Assembly: GCA_030390025.1 (NCBI GenBank)
Contig: CM059432.1
Coordinates: 57,042,001-57,106,000 of the forward strand
Direction: 5' to 3'
Origin: Squalus acanthias
Taxonomy: Eukaryota
Length of the DNA: 64,000 nucleotides
In this document: one piece after another, positions 28 to 64,000 of the stretch
How positions within the stretch are numbered: position 1 is the first letter of the stretch
Layout: each line of letters begins with the position of its first letter
The notes under the pieces: generated by a model
Told to the model about the DNA's origin: nothing
The model's input: the letters and a program-made list of their open reading frames with translations, nothing else
Databases searched by the model: none
Translations under genes and position numbers: made by a program

Positions 28-714
28 GGCCTGGATTTTCCGGGGCCTATGACCATGTACACACAGCGTACATGGTCGTACATGCTCCGCAAGTTCCGGG
101 TTTCCGCACGAAAACCCGGAATTTGCAATCTGTCAAGATTCTGCTTAACCGATCGTACAAATCCACAGGAAATGGACATTCGCTGGTGCATTTGCCCAAC
201 TACTGCCCACTAATCTCTTACACTTTCTTTTACCTGCATAAGGTTTAAATAAATATTAAAATAATTTTTTACAATTGATTTAAACATTCAAAAACCTTTA
301 AAATTAGCTTAGGTTATTTTTGGCCCCTTTAAAAAATGTTTACATTTATTTTTCAAAAAATTAAATTTTTGTTTTAAATGTTTGATTAAATTGTATTTTA
401 ATTAATTTTGAACATGTGATGATTTATTTTTATTTAACTGCTGTGAAAGTGTTTTTTGGGTGATTCCTTTCAGCTTATGGGGATTCCGTACGTAAGTGGA
501 ATCCCCATAAGCATAATGGGAATCCCCCTTTGTGATTGGTTGGGCCGGCCCACGTGATCCCAGGGACGCTTGCGAACCGCATGCGCCCCTGGGATACATG
601 GGCCTTTACACAGGCCCAGGAGCGCAAGTGTCCAGAGACACCAGGTAGGTGCGTACTTTTCTTGCGGTTCAAAGCGTTCGCCTGTGACAAGCCTCCGACC
701 GCAATTTCCACCCC
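28..714 (-). mobile_element. Harbinger-type MITE, hairpin-rich family, copy A (reverse orientation to copies B-D)
   Basis: Imperfect TIRs GGCCTGGATTTTC / CAATTTCCACCCC, flanks AAT/ATT. Shares the GGATCACGTGGGCC..CCAAT..AAGGG core and AT-rich centre with copies at 8957, 23237 and 63346. Confidence 0.8.
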
Positions 715-5541: not shown

Positions 5542-6370
5542 GGGCTGGATTTTGTCAATGGGGACGTGATGGAGGCGGGACTCCCACTTTTTGGGTTGTA
5601 GTCCCGCCTCCATCGACTTGTGGCCAACCCACTGTATTTTCCCTTGATTGACCTTGTTAAGCCCACCCAGCGGGCTCAGCAAGCCAATTAAGGGCCACCC
5701 GGCAACAGGTGACATCACAGATTGACATTTCATCTGTTAAGAGCTTTTGACAGATGAAATATCAGCGTTTGACAGCTCCTTGAAGCTGTCAAACACTGAC
5801 AATCTGTCCTCTAAGTTAATTCCTTTCTCTCAGGCTGATTTAGAGATCTCTGCAGAACAAAAAGCAGAGGCTGCAGCTTTTGACAGCTCAATGGCCATTC
5901 TGCTTTCTGTGCCGGTGAGATTTCTGACTCCCGACACCTGCAGGAGGAAGTTAAAGTAAGTAAAACTTTTTTCCACACTTTACACTTACCTTACACACTT
6001 ACCTCTGCACACATGCACCCATCACTCATCTGCCCACCGGATATATCGACCCCTCCAACCCCTGCAGACCCACGGTCCACCTCGCTAAAACGGCGTGGTT
6101 CAGACCTGTCGGGAAGCCCACACTTCAGGGCTAAAAATAGGGATTCGGCAAAAAACTGCCTGTTAACTACCTGTTAACAGGCAGTTTATTAGCACTAATC
6201 CCCTTCCCGCCTCGGGGAGGCGGGTCCCAGCACAGGTCGGGTACCCGCCTCCTGTGAAACTGGCATGGAGGCGGGTTGGGGGCGGGATGTGTTCGGGACC
6301 CCCGAATCTGCTATTTTCCCACCCCACACGCCTCCAAACCCGCCTCCACGGGTCAATGAAAATTCTGCCC
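5542..6370. mobile_element. Harbinger-type non-autonomous element
   Basis: TIRs GGGCTGGATTTT / AAAATTCTGCCC with exact 3-bp TSD CAA (5539-5541, 6371-6373); internal palindromes. Confidence 0.85.
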
Positions 6371-8956: not shown

Positions 8957-9614
8957 GGCCCTGAATTTCCGATCGGAGCCTTCCTGCGGGCGGATGCCTC
9001 CGATCGGAAAAAAATCTACGGAACTACCTGCTGGTTCGCAAGTGCCCCGGGATCACGTGGGTCAGGCGAACCAATCAAAGAAGGGAATCTCCCTTCATAC
9101 TTTTGACAGTTCTGTCCCTACAGACCTGTCAAAAGTATGAATGGGGATCACATTTAAAAACACACTAAAGCATTAAATAATCTTTTTTCTAAATTACATA
9201 ATTAAAATTAATTAAAATTCCATTTAATTAAATATTTTTTAAATTAATTATTTGAGAAAAATTAAATGTTTTTACGGGGCTAAAAATAAACTTACCTTTT
9301 TGAAGAGTATTTTTAATTTATAAATGAGTTATTAAATTTAATTTTTCTATTTTATAACACTTTTAAGCTGGTAAAAGCAGGCTTTACACCTGCTTTTACC
9401 AGACGTAAGAATTCTATGGCCTTTCAGCGGGCGGAAGTTGTGCAAAAAGCGCAAATCTCCACCCACAGAGGCACTTTTCCCAGGCAGGCGGATGATCTGT
9501 CAAGAGAATCCTCTGTCAAAAGAAGGCTTCGCATGCCTGAAAGCTGCACTTGTGAGGCCCCTACGGGTGCGTACACACCTCGTATGCACCCATGGGGATC
9601 GGAAAATCCATCCC
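8957..9614 (+). mobile_element. Harbinger-type MITE, hairpin-rich family, copy B
   Basis: TIRs GGCCCTGAATTTCCGATC / GATCGGAAAATCCATCCC; collinear with 23237-23981. Confidence 0.85.
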
Positions 9615-10314
9615 AATGACTCTGCCCCTAATTGCAGAGATCAAGGTCATTAGCATAGTCGGGCAGGCCATCGGTGCCTGCAAGCAGTACCAAGAACGGT
9701 AAAGTGGTGCACAACCCAGGCTGAATACAACAGTGACTTTCAACATTCTTCGGTTCTAAAGGGGAGCCAGTGCCAGAAAAAACAAAGATAATCAATCTTC
9801 ACTGTGATTGATTATCTTTGTCTGTGGGACTTTTTGGGACCTTTCTTAGGGACTCAACAGAACTGTCGCCCACAATTTTGCACCCTCCCCCAATTTTCCC
9901 CCAGCACCGGAATCTTCCATAAGGGTACAAGTGGGGCAGAAGCCCAATCAACTGAGTTATCCTCCATGATGGTTAATTGCCACAGAAGATAAAATGTTTA
10001 AAGAACTAGTCTAATGTATTTATGGCCATTAACATTTAAATTCTAGTACTATCATACAATAGAACCTTTTGATAGTAATGATTATAAATGCAATGGAAAT
10101 TAATAATTGAAGTGGACTGTCTAAAGGGACGAATGGGAATGTGAAACATTCTTTATAATATTCTATAGGACTAAGTGTTTTATAAAAGGCACTTTAGAAA
10201 GACACATTTAATGTACATGATTCCTGATGAATTCATTTTACCTTTGAGCTATTTTCATAAAATTATATTAATTAACCATTTTTGATAACCTATCAATACA
10301 TAGCTTCAGTTTTC

Positions 10315-22790: not shown

Positions 22791-23236
22791 TTCTGTCCAT
22801 GCTGTAGTTGGCTCATCCTGTGACTCTTTTTCCAAAACATAAGAGTTTCCCAGGACTTCATCCTATCTCTCACTCTGTTCCCTCTTCATATGAATAACCT
22901 CCATTAATAATCCAATCCCATATATTCTTTTGCTATTGACTCTACCGTGGACTAATCAATTGCCTACAACTTCCACACACTCAATTCTGACGACCTCCAG
23001 TCTTCTTGCAGAGCAGTGGCTGAATCACTATAAGTTGATCTTCACCATATATTTGAACAAAGCAATGAAACATTTTCAGTTCTTCAGAGACATAGAGCTA
23101 AAAATTCCGTGGTTCCACCAGAAATGCAATACAGCGGGACTTCTGGCTGCCTGCTGGAGAAGATGTTGACCCCCTATTCCAAATACTGTACAGAGTCAAT
23201 TTAATAATTTGCATGGGGTGGTGGGGTGGAGATCAT

Positions 23237-23981
23237 GGCCCGTATTTTCTGATCTGAGGCTTCCTGCGTGCGGAGGTCTCCGATCTCTCAAAATCTAAGA
23301 ACTTACCTGAGGGCTCCCGAGGTGTGTATACTTCCGTTCCTGGGCCTCTCCAAACTCGAAATGCGCGGGGCCCACGTATCTCAAAGGTGCAGCGGTTCGC
23401 AAGCGTCCCTGGGATCACGTGGGCCATGGGGAGCCAATAGGAGAAGGGAATCTCCCTTCATACACTTGACAGATAGACCTGTCAAATATATGAGTGGAGA
23501 ACACCCCAAAAACACAGTAAAACATTAAATACATTTTTAAAAAACCACCACTTTTTTTAAATGAGTTGAAATTACAATAAATTAAATATTTTAAACAAAA
23601 ATTTAATTTTTTGAAATAAATAATGAAAGTTTTTTACAGGCCTAAAAATAAACTTACCTTTTTTTAAAGTATTTTTAAATGATAAATGAGTGAAAAAAAT
23701 TTTTTTTTACTTTTTCAACTGTTATGCTGGTAAAAGCAGGCCTTATGCCTGCTTTGACCAGGCGTAAGAATTCTAAGGGTTTTCTGTGGGCGGAGGTTCT
23801 CCAGAAAGCGGAACTATCCGCCCGCAGAGGCTCTTCTCTAGGGCAGGCATCCGATCTGTCAAGAGCATTCTTGACCTATCGGAAATGCCGGTTTTCAGCA
23901 CATGTACTTCGCATGCCTGAAACCGGCATTTCCGATGTCCCTACGGGTGTACACACCCGTAGGCATCGGAAAATACGGCCC
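23237..23981 (+). mobile_element. Harbinger-type MITE, hairpin-rich family, copy C
   Basis: TIRs GGCCCGTATTTTC / GAAAATACGGCCC; exact TSD CAT (23234-23236, 23982-23984). Confidence 0.9.
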
Positions 23982-24382
23982 CATGTCTGTGCAGGTGCAA
24001 CAGAGGTATTCATCTCAAGGAAGTGCAGGAAAATTGGAGTGGTACCCTGCTGTTCTAATTAGAGGAGCCAGAGACCTTATGAAAACCAGTTCCTCCATTA
24101 CTGAAGGTAATCAATCCCCTCCAGTATCGATTAGCTTTCAGTCTTTACATTTCTGGGCATGTCTTCCACTGGTCCTAATGAGGGGAAACTGGGCAGATTT
24201 CCCCAGATAGCCTGTGAACACCCCCAGACATGCTTACCATTATTGGCTTCATCTTACTCCTTCTTTATCTATCAACATTCTTGATGTCACTATTTCCAAA
24301 TGGAACCACCACATCTCCATTGCTAGAGCCGCCTCAAAGAAGCTCGATATCCTCTTTTATGTTAAATGTTTTGTCAGAACTT

Positions 24383-31823: not shown

Positions 31824-32579
31824 GGCCCCTAATTTGCGGTCAGCGGCGAAGCAAAGGTGTTCGCTGCTGGCCCCGAAGAAAGCTTTCCACAAAGATCTTG
31901 CGATCTCTGTGGTGAGAAGTTCGGCTTTTTCGACATGCAGTTGAAATCAGTGGAAGTTAATGGGGAATCCCTAACACGAGCTGCTGTGACGTCAACAAGC
32001 TGTCTGAGCAGTCAAAATGCAGAAATCATTACAGACTGAGAACCAGGAAGTGAGTAAGCTCCTTTGTTTCTAACTTTTAAAAAATGTTGTAGTGAGCAAA
32101 ACAAAGATTGAGGCTCTCACATGGGGAAAAGGTAAATCTGAAATAAAGATGAACAAACTCTTTAAAAAAACAAAAACAAAAATTTAAGTTTCTTAAAAAT
32201 TGTAATTTTTATTAAAATGGATAAGTTTGACACTCCACAAAATTAAAATTAGCTTTTCAGGGCCATAACATTTGTTTAGCAGTAAATACGTTGTTAAAAT
32301 CCCAGTTACACCTAATCCAAAAGGGTCCAACTTTTAATGGGGTATTTAACAGTGATATTACCGTGGAAGAGCCAAAGTTTGCGTCAGTTTCCCTGATTTC
32401 CCTGATTACGCTGATTGCCGGCTGTGGGGGGGCACAGCGCAGCCAGTGTCGGAACAGCGAACTTCAGGATTTCCGCGTTAGGATGCGCATGTGCTACATC
32501 CTGAAGTTGCGGTCAGTTTCAAAGGAGTAATAACAGCGAACGCTATTCACTCGTTATTACCCACCGGAAATTATAAGCC
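31824..32579. mobile_element. Harbinger-type MITE, third family
   Basis: Ends GGCCCCTAATTTGCGG / CCGGAAATTATAAGCC, exact TSD ATT; GC-rich arms around an AT-rich centre. Confidence 0.75.
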
Positions 32580-34474: not shown

Positions 34475-36036
34475 CAAGGGTCTAGTGAGAAGGAGGAATT
34501 AAAGGAAATAAGTATTAGTAAAAAAATAGTGCTGGAGAAATTAATGGGACTGAAAGCTGATAAATCCCCAGGGCCTGATAATCTGCATCCCAGAGTACTA
34601 AAAGAGGGTAGCCATGGAAATAGTGGATGCATTGGTTGTCATCTTCCAAAATTCTATAGATTATGGAATAGTTCCTGCAGATTGGAGGGTGGCAAATGTA
34701 ACCCCACTATTAAAAAAGGAGGGAGAGAGAAAACAGGAAACTACAGACCGGTTAGCCTAACGTCAGTAGTAGGGAAAATGCTAGAGTCTATCATAAAGGA
34801 TGTGATAACAGGACACTTAGAAATATCAACAGGATTAGACAAAGTCAACATGGATTTATGAAAGGGAAATCGTGCTTGACAAACCTACTGGAGTTTTTTG
34901 AGGATGTAACTGGTAGAATAGATAAGGGAGAACCAGTGGATGTGGTGTATTTGGATTTTCAGAAGGCCTTTGATAAAGTCCCACATAAGAGGTTGGTGTG
35001 CAAAATTAAAGCACTGGGATTGGGGGTAATATACTGGCATGGATTGAAAATTGGTTAACAGACAGGAAACAGAGAGTAGGAATAAATGGGTCTTTTTCGG
35101 GGTGGCAAGCAGTGACTAGTGGGGTACTGCTGGGATCAGTGCTTGGGCCCCAGCTATTCACAATATATATCAATGATTTGGATGAGGGAACCAAATGTAA
35201 TATTTCCAAGTTTGCTGATGACACAAAACTAGGTGGGATAGTGAGTTGTGAAGAGGATGCAAAGAGGCTTCAAGGCGATTTCGACAAATTGAGTGAGTGG
35301 GCAAATACATGGCAGATGCAGTATAACGTGGATAAATGTGAAGTTATCCACTTCAGTAGGAAAAACAGAAAGGCAGAGTATTATTTAAATGGTGATAGAT
35401 TGGGAAATGTTGATGTACAAAGGGACCTGGGTGTCCTTGTACACCAGTCACTGAAAGCAAACATGCAGGTACAGCAAGTAGTTAGGAAGGCTAATGGTAT
35501 GTTGGCCTTCATTGCAAGAGGATTTGAGTACAGGAGCAAGGATGTCTTACTACAGTTATACAGGGCCTTGGTGAGACCACACCTGGAGTACTGTGTGCAG
35601 TTTTGGTCTCCTTACGTAAGAAAGGATATACTTGCCATAGAGGGAGTGCAGCGAAGGTTCACCAGACTGATTCCTGGGATGGCAGGACTGTCGTATGAGG
35701 AGAGATTGGGTCGACTAGGCCTGTATTCACTAGAGTTTAGAAGAATGAGAGGGGCTCTCATTGAAACGTATAAAATTCTGACAGGGCTAGACAGACTGGA
35801 TGCAGGGAGAATGTTTCCCCTGGCTGGGGGGTCTAGAACGAGGGGAAACAGTCTCAAGATACGGGGTAGGACATTTAGGACTGAGATGAGGAGAAATTTC
35901 TTCACTCAGATGGTGGTGAACCTGTGGAATTCTCTACCACAGAAGGCTGTGAAGGCCAAGTCACTGAATATATTTAAGAAGGAGATAGATAGATTTTTAG
36001 ACGCAAAAGGCGTCAAGGGGTATGGGGAGAGAGCAG

Positions 36037-36119
36037 GAACCTGAAACAAAAGCTGCAGAGCATTACCTATGTTTTTCTTTGCTGAAAGCAGGAAGTTTGG
36101 CAGTATTTACAGTAGTATG
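36037..36119 (+). repeat. 83-bp direct duplicate of 36743-36825
   Basis: 81/83 identical by direct comparison. Confidence 0.97.
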
Positions 36120-47173: not shown

Positions 47174-47972
47174 CTGTTTCTCTCCACAGATGCTGTCTGG
47201 CCTGCTGAGCATTTCCAGCATTTTCTGTTTTTATTCCATACTGTGGCAATGAGTCAAAAGGTGTGCTGCTATAATTTTTGCAGTTAATTTTTTAATTGAT
47301 TTTTTTTTTACGACTGCATTCCTCATTGCTTCACTTAGTCACAGTGCACTTTGCTCAATTTTAATCTTGCATTCTACATTGGCATGAAATGATTAGATTT
47401 AGGGATCCCCCTTCTATATGGAAAAAGCTATGTCAATCTATTTAGTGTGTTCCATTCACACACAGAGGTATATTGACACAATCTTAGTTTAATGTTCCTC
47501 TTGGAAGATTAAAGCTATTTTTGCCATCCATAAATTCACTAGGCAGCATGAAGTCAGCTGAATTCATAGATAGTCAGGGCCTGAGCTACAGAGAAGCTAA
47601 TTACTTGTGTGGAATATGAGTTATTGATTTACGTCCCACTTCAGATAAATTGAAAAATGCAGCATTTGGCTAAGCAAGTATATAACTGTGAAGCTGGTAA
47701 TCCAATAAATACAATGTTTATGAAAAATGGATTGATTTAATCATCACAGTAAGTAAATATTAGTCAGTGATACTTTCATTACTGGCCTAATAATACTGAT
47801 CCTGCTATTGCTGATATTAATGCTTTCTTTCTGTTATACTGGGCTGGATTTTAATGCCCAGGAGCGCATGCTTTGGGCGTTAGGCTGTGTGCAAGTAAAC
47901 TGACCTCGGGAGAGGCAGGTTGCCACTTAACATATGGTAATCGCTCAATTAGAGCGATATTGACATGGGTTT

Positions 47973-48582
47973 TAGGAATATAGGAAGGAATATAGGAACA
48001 TAGGAACAGGAGTAGGCCATTCAGCCCCTCGAGCCTGTTCCACTATTCAATGAGATCATGGCTGATCTGCATCCTAACTCTATCCACCCGCTTTAGCTCC
48101 ATATCCCTTATTACGCTTGGCTAGCAAAAATCTATTGATCTCAGATTTAAAATTATTAATTGAGCTAGCATCTACTGCTTTTTGTGGGGAAGTTTTCCAC
48201 ACTTCTACCACCCTTTGTGTGAAGAAGTGTTTCCCAACTTCCCTCCTGAACGACCTGGCTCTGATTTGAAGGTTTTTGTCCCCTTCTGCTAGACTCCCCT
48301 GCCAGCAGAATAAGTTTCTCCCTATCTACGCCATCAGTTCCTTTCAAAATCCTAAAAACCTCAATCAAGTCACCCCTTAACCTTCTATATTCCAGGGAAT
48401 ACAAGCCTAGTTTATGTATAATCTTCTCATAATTTAACTCTTGGAGCCCTGGTAACATTTTGGTGAATCTGCGCTGCACTCCTTCCAATGCCAATATCTC
48501 CTTTCTAAGGTGCGGTGCCCAGAACTATATACAGTACTCCAGATATGGTCCAACCAGGGCTTTGTATAGCTGTAGCAAAACT
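47973..48582 (-). mobile_element. CR1 3' fragment nested in Harbinger
   Basis: ORF 48165-48494 (LEGVQRRFTKMLPG...RLRGDLIEVF); GGAAYATAGG tail. Confidence 0.93.
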
Positions 48583-48589
48583 GCACCCT

Positions 48590-49632
48590 CCAACCTGGAC
48601 TCTCCACTGCTGTCCCTGACTCCACCATCTGCTCTTGTTCACTTGTGAAGTGCAAGTCACCATGTGAAACCTGACTATCTCTCTAACTATTGCCACCGAA
48701 GTGCGAGTATCTGAGCTGGTACATAGTCTGTATATATAATGTAACAGTGCACCCTCAGAGGGAGTGAGCTCCTCAACCACCTTTGATGGATGCATGAAGG
48801 CCCTGTGGGAGATAAAAGACATGAATGAGTTCTGTCAAGGAAAGCATGTTTGAAGTTCTCATTATGCACATGATCATATTTCACTCGCTGTTGTCATCAA
48901 GTCAACATGACTGAGTGGTGTATGCCATGTGGCTGCCTGATATTTAATTCTATCACCAGGTAGCTGGCAAGCCCCTATCTCGGACAGCCAGGCACATCGA
49001 GACTCCGCTGATCTCCACTGCCCACTCCTCTGTAGCTGTTAATTGCGAGACCTGTGGAGGTCCACCTCCAGTTCTCTGCATCTCCCTGCTGTTCTGTGCT
49101 CTCTTCTCCTGCAAGGAGGGAAAGGAGCGACCTATGAGTGAGAGTATTGGCATGTGTTCACTTGATGGATGGAGAGCATTTCTTGAGGGTGACTATGAGG
49201 GATAGGCATGACATCGCATAAGGTTGAGGGTGAGTGTCAGTGGTGGATGGATAGATGGGGATGTGAGGAAGTGTATAGACGGAGAGGGATGGGTGCACCT
49301 GCAAAGTAAGTTGGTGTGAGGAGTGATGTGCTGGAGTAGGCTTGAGAAGGCAGAGTGAGGGGGTTGGGGTGATACGCACATTAAAATGCAGGGCAATGTG
49401 CCATTGCTCTCACTTTTCCTGCCCTGCTTAGGTCATTGAAGCGCTTACTTCATTCAATCCAAGAGAGTGGCACCACACTCCCGCTGCTGACTTCCTCGGC
49501 AACCTCAAACCATGTCGTCTTTGTCTCACCAGGTAGGGAACAGTATCTCCCTCCAGGTCCTCACAGTCCCCAGCAGCACATCCAGGGAGGCGTCAGTGAA
49601 GCAGGCGCAGCCTTTGCCCATCTCGATTCCAT
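48590..49632 (-). pseudogene. Harbinger Myb/SANT-like DNA-binding gene (NAIF1-related family), multi-exon, disabled
   Basis: Exon 1 reads AAP-FTDASLDVLLGTVRTWREILFP / TKTTWFEVAEEVSSGSVVPLSWIE*SKRFNDLSRAGK then GTGAG. Exon 2 follows TTGCAG: EKRAQNSREMQRTGGGPPQVSQLTATEEWAVEISG. Probable exon 3 follows CCCACAG near 48800. Confidence 0.85.
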
Positions 49633-50739
49633 TCCAACACTTCTTTCTCTCCCCATGACAATGGCAACTGCTTCACTGGCAAGTTTGGACTGTCCCTTTA
49701 AATACTGGAGTTGAGATCACATTATGCGGGTTGTCATCACGCCTGCTGATGCTAATTGGACAGGAAACCAGGAAATCAGATGTTAATGAAGTGGCTGCGT
49801 TAAAAAGCCACTGACAGACACGCTGCACATATTTCCGTGTTTCCCACGTGCTATTGGGCCCTCCCACTCTCAGTGCGTCTGTGCATTAAGGTCCAATGCA
49901 CTAACACAGCTAGTTGAGTTTGAATGTAAATTGAGGCTGGTATTTGATCCTGGGCTCTCTGGGAATCCAACATAGTCCTAAAGTTGTTATGGGTATGCCC
50001 TCGTTTAAAGATATTGTTTAATTTCATTGATGCCACCTAATGTTTAAATTCCTCAGTCTAAGGAATATTTAAAAATACTTTTCCTTGTGCACCTTCTGCC
50101 ATTAAATTATGTTTATACTGTCTGTTTTGTGCCAAAGTGAGCCTGGCAGAGATTCAATTCTAGAGTGAAATTGATGATGTAAACCCTGGCAACCTGCTCA
50201 TACTAGCACAAAGATTTGTCACTTCCCAGCACAATAACTGGATGTGTTGTACTTTAAATATTGATCCAGTCTGAAGATGGTATCTCTAACATTGACATGC
50301 AGTGAGATTGCCCAGCAGCAAAAATTCAGAGTAAATAGTGATATTACTTGTACCTGACTGTTGTCTTGTTAAATCCATTTGGTAATGCCTGACTGTTTTA
50401 TTCAAGGTTTTGCAATACCTTGCTGGAACAAAGCATGTAAACTAGGCACCTCTGATTAGTTTTTTTAGTGAGGGAGTAGGTTGCAGTTATGCAGCTTTCC
50501 TTTCTTGATAAGTTTACCTGAAAATAAAATAGATTAAAAAAATGCTAACTCTAAGAAAGTGAAACCTCTAATTGAAACCAGCAAATATCCAATCATTCTA
50601 ATTAAGCAGACCCAATAGAAAATCTGAAATATTAATCAGTTCCTAAGCAAATGCTCCTTTGATCAAATATTTTCTATTTTTGCATCGATTAAGGTGAGGG
50701 ATGACAGTGCTGGGAAATAAATCACTTCTCTACTTTTCA

Positions 50740-56812: not shown

Positions 56813-57135
56813 CTCACACTCCCTTTGGTAGTCACTAGTTTTTAATTTTGCCAGTTGTGGCTGCCAGTTTGCAATCATTTTGATTTGAAACTAAGCTGCC
56901 TTCACAAGTTTTAGGAGAAATGGAAATGGAAATCGTATCAGTATTCATGAATGGGGATGACCTCTTGTAAAACATGGAATTGCAAACGTTATTAAGTGTG
57001 TTACAGAAGCAAAATACTGCGGATGCTGGAAATCTGAAATAAAAACAGAAAATGCTGGAAATACACAGCAGGTCAGGCAGCATCTGTGGAGAGAGAAACA
57101 GAGTTAACGTTTCAGGTCGATGACCTTTCATCAGA

Positions 57136-57168
57136 AGTTCTGACGAAAGGTCATCGACCAGAAACGTT
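57136..57168 (+). ncRNA. Hammerhead motif disrupted at its cleavage triplet
   Basis: AGUU-CUGACGA-A-AGGUC-AUC-GACCA-GAAAC-GUU; the stem I partner AACU now lies at 58945-58948. Confidence 0.7.
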
Positions 57169-58941
57169 AGGCTGGATTTTCCCTGCGGAGGCGGGATGGC
57201 GGCGGGAGAGCTGGTTGACTGCTTCCGGTCCCCCTCCCATCTGCAGCCGCTCTCTGAAAAAGATTTTCCGTAAATTGGCCTTGTTAAGCCCGCCCTGCGG
57301 GGTTCCTGGCCAATTAACAGGAAGCGGATCTGATGACGTCATTTGATGATGCGTCATCAGCCGGTTTCCTTAAAGGGACCATGGCCACATTGATTTTGAC
57401 AGTTGTGCTGTCAGTGTTCTGCAGCATTGAGGTGCTGAAAACACTGACAAGCACTACACAAAGGTGCACGTCTGCACCCAGGCTCACGCATGACTCCCTC
57501 CAAATGCTTATGGAGAGAGTCACAGCACGCAGGGAGATTCTCTTCCCTTCCCATGGGTGGAAGAGACCTCCCCAGAAGATCAACGCAGCCTGGTTGCACA
57601 TTGCACAGGAGGACACAAGCAGGGATGTCGTCAGGAGGACCAGGCTGCAGTAGCGCAAACATTTCAATGATCTCAGTAGATCACGAAACATTACTGCAAA
57701 GCCACACCCAACCTCATCCTCCTGTGCCACTCATCACATCCCCATCACTCTGCCTTCCATACCCTACTCCTGCCAACTTACCTTGCACCTCCACCCATCC
57801 CTCTCTATCTACATTATCACTTCCCCATCTCACTAGCCACCCCTCACACTCATCCTACTGCAAGCATACCAACTAACAACACACAAGGGTAGGCACTTGA
57901 GAGATCTAGCCAATGTTCATTTGAAGTTTCTGTTAATGTGTTGTCATCCATTGAAATCTATATTTTCAACATTTCACGTTATTGGACAGATCTGTGTGCA
58001 CCTTGAGAAGTGTCTTAGTGAGTTCCAGTGAATGTTGAGACATAACTACCCGCCCCCCCCCCCCTCCCCCCACTATTGTGATGAGTGTGATAGGAATGGC
58101 TTGGACATTATAGGGATGCTTTATGGTGCTGGTGTGGGATGGTGTCAACCTGGCGCATCATGTGGCAGCCAGGGTGTACAGCGTCAAGTGAAGTAAATCT
58201 GGCCATGGTGATGCCATTGCTGACCTCCTGGGCAGCAATGTTGTCAGGTGCTGATGCCCTGTGTCCTGTGCAGCATCAGGTGATGGCGGAGAAGGTTGTT
58301 GTTGGTGATAATGGTTTGCCTAGTGATGTGGGTGTTGGGGCTGATCGTGGAAGGATTGAAAGGACCAACATGTGATTTTTTTCAAGGGCACCGATGTTGC
58401 TGGAATAGATGGCAGCTGCAGTTGAGATGACAGAAGTGATCTGTCACTGGTGAGAGAGGTTGTTCCAATGAGGTGCCACTGGATATACAGTTGGCTCTAA
58501 ACACTTGCAAGCTAAAGAAATCTCTATGTCTTACAAATGCAGTTAACAACAGTTTCTGAGTTCTGAAACTGAACAGCTGCAACATGGTATCCTTTATACC
58601 ACTTCTGCAGCTGTCAGGTTATCAGATAAATCAGAGCAGACTCAACTCACGACAGGGTGAGCTGGCGTGTTCCCTGAGCAGCGGGTAACCCGTGGGGAGC
58701 ATGTAAAATTACAAGGTAGGCTCAAAATAGCGTTAAATTGGCTTTTAACAAGCCATTTAATTATCTAAATTGTCTCCTCCACCGCTTGGTGTCGTGTCAG
58801 TCTGCGCAGACAGACGCGATACCTGGGAGACTCGCGTGGAGGCGGGTTGACAGCGGGTTTCCTACCCGCTGTCAATCTTTGCTATTTTGACAGCGGACCC
58901 GCCTCCAAACCTGCACTCCGAGCGCTGGCAAAATCCAGCCC
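57169..58941 (+). mobile_element. Internally deleted Harbinger transposon (1773 bp)
   Basis: TIRs AGGCTGGATTTT / AAAATCCAGCCC, exact TSD GTT; Myb remnant on + strand. Confidence 0.92.
57460..57683 (+). pseudogene. Harbinger Myb/SANT-like domain exon with premature stop
   Basis: SAPRLTHDSLQMLMERVTARREILFPSHGWKRPPQKINAAWLHIAQEDTSRDVVRRTRLQ*RKHFNDL; homologous to the exon at 49415-49632. Confidence 0.88.
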
Positions 58942-59660: not shown

Positions 59661-62067
59661 CAAATTAGTCTAAAAATCAGAAGGAGAAATGTTTAATCAC
59701 ACCATGAGCACAAATCCTAATATCCTGATTCATAAGTCTTGGGACTCTATATTTGAATACTGAAAAATTCCAACAATTCATTCTGTTTCTGTGCTAGTTA
59801 TAACATAACCAAAGGCAACTTTGTGGATACTTGACTCTTGTCCAGATCGCGAGTTCAAGGATAGTCTGTAAGTCACATTCCCCTTGATTTGGGTTGAGTA
59901 AGTTAAACTTTCATCTGTTCTACAAGATGCAGTGTCACAAAATTGCAAAATGAGAAATCCACACAGGTAAAGTTTTCTGCTTACCCAATCTGAAGTAGGC
60001 ACACTCTCCCCATAGAGACACACCAACTTGTTTAAATCCAGAGAGTTTAGGTACAGGTTGGTAAGAGCCAAGCCGTAGGGAACCCAAGTGTGCACAGAGG
60101 GTACTGCTGGAGTTTAACTAACTAAAATTGCACAGTATACCAGCACAGAAAAGCGAAAGCTTCCCACTGCTTGTCCAGCCATGATGACCCTACCTGTTCA
60201 GCCGCTGGCTTGAACGGTTATCTGAAGCCTAGAATCCAAGCAATATGTGACAGTATTCCTTGCTTTCCCCGCCCCTGCCCACAGTTCCATTAATGGCCAG
60301 ATTGTCTGGTTCATCATCAACCAACCCTGGAGTACTGCAGAATTCCCTACTTTGGATGTCGGTTGACCAAATCTAGTATGGAGAGTTGACTTTTTTCCAC
60401 TCTCCCATCATCAACATTTCATCTCGGAACTGTATCTCTCACCTCCATCCCCTCCTCTCTCGTTCACAGAGGAAAGGTACTAGTTGGTCATTCAGCAGCT
60501 GAATGGCAGATACCAGGAACTCCTCATGATTGGCATGGTGAGCAGCGCAATTTGCCATAAAGTACATTGCCACCCTAATTTTAGCCCAAGCATAGCCAGT
60601 TAAACACTGGTTCCACCAGTTGGAGATGCAGAGTTCCAGCCGAAGATGTTTGCTTCTGGGCCTATATATATGAGCTTGTGCTCCCATAACCAGCTTCCAG
60701 GTAACACCTTCCAGCAACATCTCAAAATGTCCTGATCTGCTATTATAACTGCCATTCAGTTTCAGTATACTGAAAACACCTATGATAGGCAGCTGTCCAC
60801 TTGTCAGCCACCTTGATGTTCTAAATGTCCAATGTCGAATGCCATATAGCAGGCTTACACATCACCAACTGTTTAATCCCGGGTTTAGCAAAGAGTGTTA
60901 CAAAAGTGACTCCCTCTTCAGGATACACAGTAGTGGGTTATGTAGGCCAGGGCAAGATGCCCTGTTTTTGGGGAGAGGAGACACAGCTTGAACTCTGCTT
61001 TCTGGCACATAATTAGACAGGCATTATCTGCAACTCAAACGATCATTGCACTTCAGAAAAAAAGTAACTCATTGTGTAAAATGCATCGTGAATGTCACTA
61101 TATAAATGCAAGCCACATATATTATGTAACTGGCTGGGGAAGGATGTGTGGTAATAAAAAATCTTCAATGTGAAACAAGCCAACCATGTTCCACCCCATA
61201 GTGGGGCTCATTTTCTTGTCCTCATTTCCAATAATACCAATTTTACTTTCTCTTTTTCATGTATTTATTCTCTGTCTCTGCGCTGCTCTTATATAGATGC
61301 ATGCACACTGTCTAGATACCATTCTCTCTTCAAATACCATTTACCAATCTGTCATTGTGAATCTCATTTATTCTTTCTGCGCTTCCCATTTAATGTCTCT
61401 GAAGATTCCATTTACTCTCTGTCCCTTCATAGACCCATATTTAGTTAACATATATGGCCAGCTTAATACTGAGTCCTTTTAACGCTTTACTCCGAGTGGA
61501 AGATAAAGGTAAAAAACAAATTTAAATAAAACACTTAGGCTGCATTTACACCACAACTGTAGAGTCAGTGCAAAGTGGTTTCCTTCACACCAGTGCTGCA
61601 GTTATAGGGCCAGAATTTGCTGGCAAAATAATGGCGCATTAAAGATGCACACCATTATTAGTGTGTTGAAAAAATGAGCAATTTGTGGCAAGGAGGAGAT
61701 ACGGCGTGAGTTGCATATCACCACAAATTGCTGGACGATTTGTGCCACTCCGCCATTAGCCTCGCAAAAACGGGATCTCGCTGTCAATCTCCCCATGAGT
61801 TCCAAGAAATTGCTGAATTTGTGACGTAAATACGAATTAAACTCACCGCAGAAAGTTAGGGCTGGTATTTCATGACATAAGAACCCTTTGAATACGAGAT
61901 TTATGTTCCTGCAATGCCACTCAACCTCGAAAGCCCAGAAAAGGAACAATTGAAACAGTGGAGTCTCACTCCTGCCGGTAATAAATTGTTCCTAGAGGTA
62001 TTGTAAATTTAAAAAGTTGAAATTCTTTTCTTACCTTTCCTTTCCGTCTCTTTTTTTCTGTGTCTGT

Positions 62068-63345: not shown

Positions 63346-64000
63346 GGGCCTGAATTTAGGACTGAGATGAGGAGAATTTTCTTCAGTCAGACGGTGGTGA
63401 ATCTTTGGAATTCTCTACCCCAGAGGATTGTGGAGGCTCAGTCGTTGAGTATATCCAAGACAGAGATCGATAGATTTTTGAATATTAAGGGAATCAAGGG
63501 ATATGGGGATAGTGCAGGAAAGTGGAGATGAGGTAGAAGATCAGCCTTGATCTTATTGAATGGTGGAGCAGGCCCAAAGGGCCAAATGGCCTACTCCTGC
63601 TCCTATTTCTTATGTTTCTTATGTTCTTATGAATTGCGATCGGAGGCTTCCCGTGGGCAGATATCTCCGATCATCAAAACATCTACGCATTTACTTGGTG
63701 GTCCAGGGGATATGGAGGCTTGCGATCCTGGGCCTCTCCTGGTAGAAATGCATAGAGGCCCACTTATCCCAGGCGCGCATGTGATTCGTAAGCGCCCCTG
63801 GGATCACGTAGGCCAGCCCAACCAATGAAAGAAGGGAATCCCCATACATACTTATGGGAGTTCTGTACGTACGGAACTGTCATAAGTATAAATGGGGATA
63901 ACTTAAAAAATACACGAACACATGAAATAAATAAATAAAAAACATTACATATATAAAATTAATTAAAATGGCATTTAATTAAATATTTTAAACAAAAATT
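63346..64000 (+). mobile_element. Harbinger-type MITE, hairpin-rich family, copy D (runs off window; TIR split by CR1)
   Basis: GGGCCTGAATT at 63346 rejoins GCGATCGGAGGCTTCC at 63636; body matches copies B and C. Confidence 0.85.
63357..63629 (+). mobile_element. CR1 3' fragment inserted in the MITE TIR
   Basis: Matches 35876-36215; (TTCTTATG) tail; flanked by TGAATT at 63351-63356 and 63630-63635. Confidence 0.93.

Follow-up and report, generated by a model that had tools for sequence, protein, structure and literature searches.

How the Myb/SANT protein and the long subterminal regions contribute to Harbinger transposition is only partly known, and we know of no experiment that shows Harbinger proteins reading structure. 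Harbinger elements are characterized by two genes, a 3-bp target duplication and an extended target preference (PMC2836001, PMC4482050). Han et al. 2015 group them by the duplication: TWA for strict PIF/Harbinger, CWG or C|TNA|G for NuwaI and NuwaII, and ANT for Pangu (PMC4482050). As far as the available parts of these papers describe them, non-autonomous PHIS/Harbinger elements such as Tourist-like MITEs and Harbinger3N_DR have short TIRs starting with G, a 3-bp duplication and a target preference (PMC4482050, PMC2836001, PMC9710019, PMC9179366), as do the elements treated here; also common to both are the lack of coding capacity and a Myb/SANT-bearing relative with like ends (PMC4482050, PMC2836001, PMC9710019). 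Subterminal binding motifs have been described for the known systems, whereas the present family carries covarying hairpin chains (PMC4482050, PMC9710019); the model cited for Harbinger3_DR is one of sequence-specific Myb binding to a 9-bp subterminal motif (PMC9710019). In the portion of PMC9179366 at hand, Harbinger is undetected in elephant shark, and other cartilaginous fish are proposed for checking.

A structural likeness in print is Harbinger-N12A_XT of Xenopus tropicalis, which is likewise a vertebrate Harbinger MITE with internal palindromic repeats and whose printed consensus, judged by eye, holds a 17-bp local hairpin near each end (PMC12676858). It is a 342-bp whole-element fold-back, whereas the family here has 14-bp TIRs and non-homologous left and right chains; the likeness is one of description, and the available part of that account contains no covariation analysis that we saw (PMC12676858). 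A process that maintains hairpins is template switching, recognizable by multiple compensations and by inverted loops (Monttinen and Loytynoja 2022, PMC8794818). The same footprints, namely adjacent compensations, stem copying and loop inversion, are met in the present elements. The available text of PMC8794818 does not contain the word "transpos", and accounts of the process concern rRNA, microRNA loci, and inverted repeats of bacteria (PMC8794818; Lavi et al. 2018, PMC5941160). The setting here is the end of a DNA transposon.

Single-stranded DNA mobile elements, such as IS200/IS605, REP/RAYT and the Helitron with its 3' hairpin, keep a structure while the letters of the stem change. They depend on HUH enzymes, have one or two strand-specific hairpins, and have no TIRs with 3-bp duplications. 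These elements serve as a working likeness under the best explanation only. The present family is not a member and was rejected as such, since it has TIRs, 3-bp duplications and nine stems, and shows no strand bias.

The window, the whole stretch of 64,000 nucleotides that was analyzed, is repeat-rich vertebrate-type DNA from Squalus acanthias with decayed LINE reverse transcriptase frames. The original prediction was of four related MITE copies, and their homology is borne out (blastn E 1e-22 to 1e-94; pairwise difference 23-37%), giving a density of four copies in 64 kb. Copy A (28..714, minus strand) is complete, belongs to an A-type subfamily, lies opposite in orientation to the other three and is flanked by the triplets AAT/ATT. 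Copy B (8957..9614, plus strand) is complete apart from the H2a/H2 5' block, and its duplication has decayed to ATA/AAT. Copy C (23237..23981, plus strand) is complete with nine of nine hairpin modules and an exact 3-bp duplication, CAT/CAT; its edges coincide with a depth step of family contigs. Copy D (63346..64000, plus strand) is cut by the window end, so that only its left part is present, and is interrupted just inside its left TIR by a piece foreign to the MITE, a CR1 LINE 3' fragment (about 63358..63628, plus strand) that matches at 81% the end of an RVT_1 reading frame at 35873-36039. The same six letters flank this piece (63352-63357 and 63629-63634), a possible insertion duplication or microhomology.

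Informative sites in 266 columns favor the tree ((A,D),(B,C)), with 18 sites against 5 and 4. D was considered as a mosaic of A and B and rejected: its single A-like block, at columns 101-200 in a part that B lacks, is explained by shared descent. The CpG observed/expected ratio is 0.84-0.91 in the copies (28-714, 8957-9614, 23237-23981, 63629-64000) compared with 0.34 in the window, which is high for old insertions. Outside the element, 170 bases downstream of B, stands a 16-bp perfect AT-rich hairpin (9782-9821), and the sequence leading up to it looks, by eye, like that downstream of C (about 24050-24115).

There is strong support for regarding these copies as an old, very high-copy family of non-autonomous DNA transposons, a PHIS (broad Harbinger) MITE of 660-750 bp, moved in trans by a predicted DDE transposase with a Myb/SANT partner and leaving a 3-bp duplication at a loosely palindromic target. 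The three complete copies measure 658-745 bp, and their longest ATG frames reach 65-86 aa. Each end is a TIR of 14 bp. The TIR of A at 28..41 (plus strand) matches its partner at 701..714 (minus strand) at 9/14 positions and is identical at 12/14 to each end of element F, discussed below; the left TIR of B (8957..8970, plus strand) matches its partner (9601-9614) at 9/14 and that of C (23237..23250, plus strand) its partner (23968-23981) at 12/14. The target duplication is exact in C, holds at 2/3 letters in A and 1/3 in B, and is exact in three further window elements, E, F and G. The flanks of these six elements fit the pattern A-N-N-Y..R-N-N-T at 21/24 positions (P = 2e-6). No group of Han et al. 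fits the six elements consistently, because the triplets CAT, AAT/ATT, CAA, GTT and ATT are not TWA, CWG or consistently ANT: the TWA duplication of strict PIF/Harbinger and the CWG or C|TNA|G of NuwaI and NuwaII each occur in 0/6 elements, and the ANT of Pangu fits A, G and one side of B, unlike C, E and F.

Related elements lie elsewhere in the window. Element E (5542-6370) has Harbinger-style TIRs, a CAA/CAA duplication and a strong chain of hairpins (z -10.7) whose building units are a recurring GGAGGCGG word and pairs of TTGACAG. Element F (57169..58941, plus strand) belongs to another family than the four copies, and no claim is made that it mobilizes them; it has like TIRs, matching the ends of A, B and C at 9-12 of 14 positions, hairpin-rich ends, and a GTT/GTT duplication inside a SINE whose uninterrupted copy at about 47162 has one GTT. 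At about 57480-57680, F holds a Myb/SANT remnant; with one stop read through, it scores 22.2 bits as Myb_DNA-bind_5 (PF13873), above the cut-off of 21.7 (E 1.3e-4). One subterminal hairpin is common to E and F. Adjoining the site of F, a 15-bp perfect stem (57115-57159) consists of two head-to-head SINE pieces. Element G (31824-32579) is a 756-bp TIR element with an ATT/ATT duplication, an AT-rich core and weak folding (z -2.2, -2.5). A probable decayed Harbinger-style element in 47841-49900 has a TIR-like start at 47841, no recognized right end and a LINE piece within; a Myb-like remnant seen by eye near 49420-49630 on its minus strand gave no Pfam match, and 12 frames of two candidate elements, F and that at 47841, matched no transposase family. 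At 61607-62000, a TIR-like start followed by a 12-bp stem (61677-61732) is likely a truncated relative.

The abundance of the family was gauged from contigs of four of 21 public runs (X1, X6, X11, X16) aligned on 22900-24300, which covers copy C only. Summed contig depth in X1 is 1.3e5-1.7e6 inside C compared with 15-160 in the flanks, a contrast of about four orders of magnitude that is not a calibrated copy number, and the steps fall at the TIRs. X6 and X11 behave like X1; X16 covers the C-type parts poorly, and its loose ends are A-like. Contigs of X11 bridge both junctions of C while differing at 30/419 and 25/352 letters, so the insertion predates the split from X11. The junctions are not bridged by X16 contigs, and those of X6 extend fewer than 31 letters across them and were left out of the bridge count. 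A pattern scan for further copies gave one locus in viral contigs, four in metagenomes and none in prokaryote genomes; in all five loci the match is confined to the pattern, and they were treated as chance rather than as family copies.

Both GC-rich ends of the element are chains of local inverted repeats. Folding of homologous segments yields nine modules: H1, H2a, H2 and H3 to the left of an AT-rich core and H4 to H8 to its right. All stems first named are present at the stated coordinates, but the list was incomplete, and its assertion that the hairpins occupy equivalent positions is upheld, as they fall in homologous alignment columns. The core (9150..9360 in B, plus strand; about 225-450 in A and 23505-23720 in C) is described as a region only, with no conserved fold claimed for it.

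On the left, H1 lies just inside the left TIR as a 13-bp perfect stem in B (8966..9010, plus strand), with homologues at 662-704 in A, 23247-23289 in C and 63634-63676 in D, and has two compensated pairs between A and B. H2 is a long stem containing the word CACGTG (547..604 in A, minus strand; 23369-23425 in C, 63757-63814 in D); its sequence is conserved, with no compensated pairs, and overlapping the 5' arm of this stem is the short H2a. B has lost that arm through a deletion and instead has a replacement stem of 8 bp at 9032..9073 (plus strand). H3, adjacent to the CCAAT motif, is a perfect stem of 15 bp in A (472..513, minus strand; predicted as 473-512) and of 16 bp in B (9094..9141, plus strand), where 7/16 pairs are compensated against A. 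The variants foreseen beside CCAAT in C (23450-23501) and D (63848-63889) are present as imperfect stems.

On the right, H4 is a 14-bp perfect stem in B (9368..9402, plus strand; 23727-23761 in C). This is the CTGGTAAAAGCAGG hairpin that B and C were said to share: shared it is, but it is conserved in sequence rather than covarying, and in A its 3' arm is deleted. H5 (23783..23828 in C, plus strand; 9424-9469 in B) has one compensated pair between B and C, and A retains a different 3' arm (about 168-182). H6 (23850..23883 in C, plus strand; 124-157 in A) is decayed and has no compensated pairs, as is true of H2 and H4. H7, a 17-bp perfect stem in C (23878..23936, plus strand) that was correctly located beforehand, as was the 10-bp stem at 94-121 within its homologue in A (88-127), has 2/12 pairs compensated. 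In B, a near-tandem duplication of a 13-letter word (9497-9524) takes the place of the H6 3' arm and H7 5' arm of C. H8, inside the right TIR, occupies 48..80 in A (minus strand) and has five adjacent compensated pairs against 9562-9594 in B. The prediction had paired the A stem (51-77, 10 bp) with that of C (23940..23963, plus strand, 11 bp); both stems are present, but the B hairpin is the better homologue, because the H8 of C has been shortened by a private 13-bp deletion. A loose end behind 23950 in the family contigs shows H8 with the full loop that C has lost, and indicates a paired change between the H8 stems of C type and B type. In sum of losses, A is without one arm each of H4 and H5, and B without one arm each of H2 and H7; no single hairpin thus appears indispensable, unless these losses followed insertion.

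Stems of this kind are heavily concentrated in the family. Perfect stems of at least 9 bp number 20 in the 2462 bases of the four copies and 24 in 56724 bases outside TIR elements (P = 2e-16), a density about 19 times higher, and those of at least 12 bp number five and three, respectively. Seven arm segments fold with z-scores of -2.1 to -9.9, compared with -0.05 +/- 1.2 for 38 background windows.

The central claim of the original prediction was that the stems change in sequence while remaining paired. Pair counts among the four copies were taken from gap-free registers, with helices and registers chosen from folds of the same four copies. Between A and B, 47 pairs could be compared: 20 are unchanged, 14 are compensated as Watson-Crick pairs, one is changed on both sides and broken, 11 are changed on one side and one is a shared mismatch. 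The 15 two-sided changes compare with 8.9 by permutation (P = 2e-4). Compensation is also significant between A and C (14/87, P = 0.004) and between B and C (3/73, P = 0.014), and is non-significant in the comparisons with D (A-D 4/55, P = 0.10; B-D 1/34, P = 0.08; C-D 2/51, P = 0.32). Under independent drift from a perfect stem, 1.4-4.6 of the 47 pairs would be compensated (P at most 2e-4) and A would remain 39-54% paired; A is actually 81% paired (77/95). Most compensations sit on the branch of A, as judged from four copies only. The shuffle, permutation and slid-register controls used here ignore the relatedness of the copies.

These results bear on whether the pattern is an artefact in which chance palindromes and misaligned, non-homologous hairpins mimic covariation. 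The sequences are few and the helices were chosen from the data, as such an account would have it. Yet the alignments of H1 and H8 are gap-free and bounded by invariant flanks, and the concentration of stems (P = 2e-16) is foreign to chance. In H3, aligned over four copies with RNAalifold, 10/27 consensus pairs changed on both sides, a count matched in 0/500 shuffles and against 0-2 in slid registers; for H8, which compares two sequences only, the five adjacent compensations were matched in 17/500 shuffles, with 0-1 in slid registers. The chance that the pattern is artefactual is therefore close to negligible. The stems are homologous, their covariation exceeds the controls, and two of the three outcomes that would have told against the prediction are thus not borne out in full.

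Covariation of this kind can be set against the literature. The hairpin-rich architecture is not new, because the palindromes of Harbinger-N12A_XT are in print (PMC12676858) and the ends of E and F are hairpin-rich as well. Any premise that MITEs lack internal folds is accordingly too strong, and the description of the locus as under-described holds for the covariation across such a chain, for which no report was found, and not for the palindromes. In the open-access literature, with Dfam and Repbase outside the scope, no description of covarying internal hairpins in a eukaryotic cut-and-paste MITE was found, and the available parts of PMC5753468, PMC3014272, PMC9179366, PMC13668399 and PMC10760457 contain nothing on them.

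The fate of pairing within individual insertions differs from that between subfamilies. From one subfamily to another, the letters of a stem are replaced as fast as those of the element at large, but in complementary pairs; once inserted, copies lose pairing. Arm divergence between A and B is 0.44, compared with 0.37 over the element and 0.35 in the AT core, so the turnover of stems is not slowed. In the resident copies, 63/352 pairs (18%) are broken or wobble, with an excess at CpG sites (23/72, compared with 40/280 elsewhere; P = 0.001). Intact pairs per copy amount to 76-85%, where 77-87% would be expected under 7-12% uncorrected drift. Decay is patchy: across 27 helix copies the mismatch counts are overdispersed (P = 0.028), a pattern compatible with a degree of correction in resident copies.

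The contigs give a view of the family beyond the window. Majority corrections of C at 23494, 23501 and 23832 (95-99.9% of depth in X1, X6 and X11) each restore Watson-Crick pairing at a mismatch or wobble (3/3). These belong to the four in-element differences of C among the 40 listed out of 183, most of which lie in the flank; the fourth, 23429, is a majority in X16 only and falls outside the helices. The orphan 3' arm of H5 in A finds a partner in X16: a 5' arm in an A-like loose-end consensus (132 contigs) is complementary to it, by eye, at 12/13 positions and departs from the B/C stem at two of the paired sites. The differences of A are hence at least partly features of a subfamily.

Selection at the level of RNA, with the stems folding in a transcript (promoter or 5' UTR, small-RNA precursor or host-exapted RNA), would also produce covariation. 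The element contains CCAAT, CACGTG and splice-donor-like words, the B-sense strand gives the more stable fold in 5/7 segments with RNA parameters and 6/7 with DNA parameters, and three G-T pairs against one A-C pair are, by eye, common to several copies. Over all pairs, however, the G-T excess is absent (22 G-T, 16 A-C; P = 0.42), there were no matches at gathering score in the window to the 4227 families of Rfam, the chains stand at both ends although a non-autonomous cut-and-paste element needs no RNA, and the resident copies decay. We regard this explanation as highly improbable. Because resident copies decay, with enrichment at CpG and no bias between G-T and A-C, pairing was probably kept in the mobile lineage and not by a host RNA function.

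The explanation we prefer, whose chances we judge to be even, is that paired arms were favored by selection on mobile elements and that block changes arose by template switching. Paired arms would be selected in the lineage of copies that later transposed, at the level of DNA and with no strand preference. The benefit may be a hairpin, a cruciform or symmetric sites that aid assembly of the Myb-transposase complex on the ends; alternatively, paired arms may aid copying of the element in gap repair. Short template switches between arms could deliver multi-base paired changes in one step, and such switches would account for the blocks of four to five adjacent compensations, the locally copied words and an apparent loop flip. 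Three occurrences each were counted in A for a 9-letter word of the new H3 arm, within 479-527, and for a 7-letter word, within 54-84. The 7-nt loop of H8 matches between A and B at 5/7 positions when flipped and 1/7 directly, in one of eight loop comparisons over three loops. Since the mobile lineage also lives as chromosomal copies, which are mostly uncorrected, a factor linked to mobility would favor paired arms. These observations suggest that hairpin symmetry itself, beyond the sequence of binding sites, mattered while the element was mobile. A stronger version, that the ends of vertebrate Harbinger-type elements must fold because the Myb-transposase complex or a copying step recognizes an ordered hairpin or cruciform array, is held only tentatively and is on balance unlikely. 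Were it true, selection would act on the shape of subterminal regions, as it does on a structured RNA, within a double-stranded DNA cut-and-paste system thought to rely on motifs only.

Mutation alone could have a similar outcome if functionless inverted repeats were re-perfected by template switching, mainly in gap repair after excision, so that the arms evolve in concert. Unslowed stem turnover is equally predicted by pure homogenization, and the neutral-looking rate at which letters change goes together here with block changes, copied words and a flipped loop. Decay is patchy, several perfect stems of 13-17 bp persist in old copies, and the H3 of D looks half-converted, its 5' arm sharing two letters with A and its 3' arm with B. 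As far as the available parts of the sources show, inverted repeats are preferentially corrected in bacteria (PMC5941160), and break repair in yeast raises mutation 1,000-fold, quasipalindrome events included (PMC12891019). On the other hand, the 18% of broken pairs in resident copies is close to the uncorrected expectation, so passive correction would be slower than point mutation for most helices. Mutation alone also leaves unexplained why unrelated Harbinger-type families have hairpin-rich ends (E and F, weakly G) while the core and background are poor in hairpins, and why the number and order of modules persist over 37% divergence. It is possible but rather unlikely as a full account. Of the two causes originally offered, structure selection and template switching, both survive in narrowed form: a role at the level of RNA or host is unsupported, and template switching as the sole, passive cause is weakened by decay near the uncorrected expectation, even as the block changes and patchy decay fit it.

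The family has tens of thousands of apparent copies, several subfamilies and insertions that more than one species carries, which makes it a natural experiment on selection for structure versus homogenization by template switching, and the contrast that would separate them is between paired changes among consensuses and one-sided changes among orthologues. If shape is selected, a structural layer is added to cut-and-paste recognition, with a bearing on the engineering of mPing/Harbinger vectors. If mutation alone is responsible, template switching could be tested on a large neutral set of sequences, and the family would caution against reading covariation as proof of a functional RNA. Either way, abundant Harbinger-type elements are documented in a cartilaginous fish, the question left by the available part of PMC9179366.

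Binding-site sequence offers a further explanation, in which each stem is a pair of head-to-head sites for Myb/SANT or a host factor, subfamilies track different partners and folding is incidental. The word TT[C/G]CG[A/G] occurs 17 times in the 2462 bases of the four copies and 26 times in 58180 background bases, and sits just inside six of seven available ends. Its form switches with the subfamily in H1 and H7 alike, from TTCCGA in B and C (three each) to TTGCGG/TTCCGG in A (three each). TTGACAG occurs eight times in the four copies and eight times in E and F, and family E is built on one word used 6-8 times in both orientations. The 9-bp subterminal Myb motif cited for Harbinger3_DR would be a precedent (PMC9710019). 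These words, TT[C/G]CG[A/G] just inside the TIRs and TTGACAG, may be candidate sites for partner proteins embedded in some stems.

As an account of the stems as a whole, paired binding sites are distinctly unlikely. The enrichment of TT[C/G]CG[A/G] comes partly from the high CpG content of the copies. Recurring words explain about three paired changes, and the biggest changes, seven pairs in H3 and five in H8, lie outside them; the H3 of A is perfect despite the loss of TTGACAG in both arms, and stems of 15-27 pairs are longer than a 9-bp site. One fixed motif behind all arms, an outcome that the prediction had named as telling against it, was looked for and rejected, because arms of different hairpins within one element share no more than shuffled arms do (P = 0.08, 0.95, 0.46). 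Among the other words of the element, some complementary to the 5' splice-site consensus recur in B and C (9290-9298, 23303-23311 and 23651-23659).
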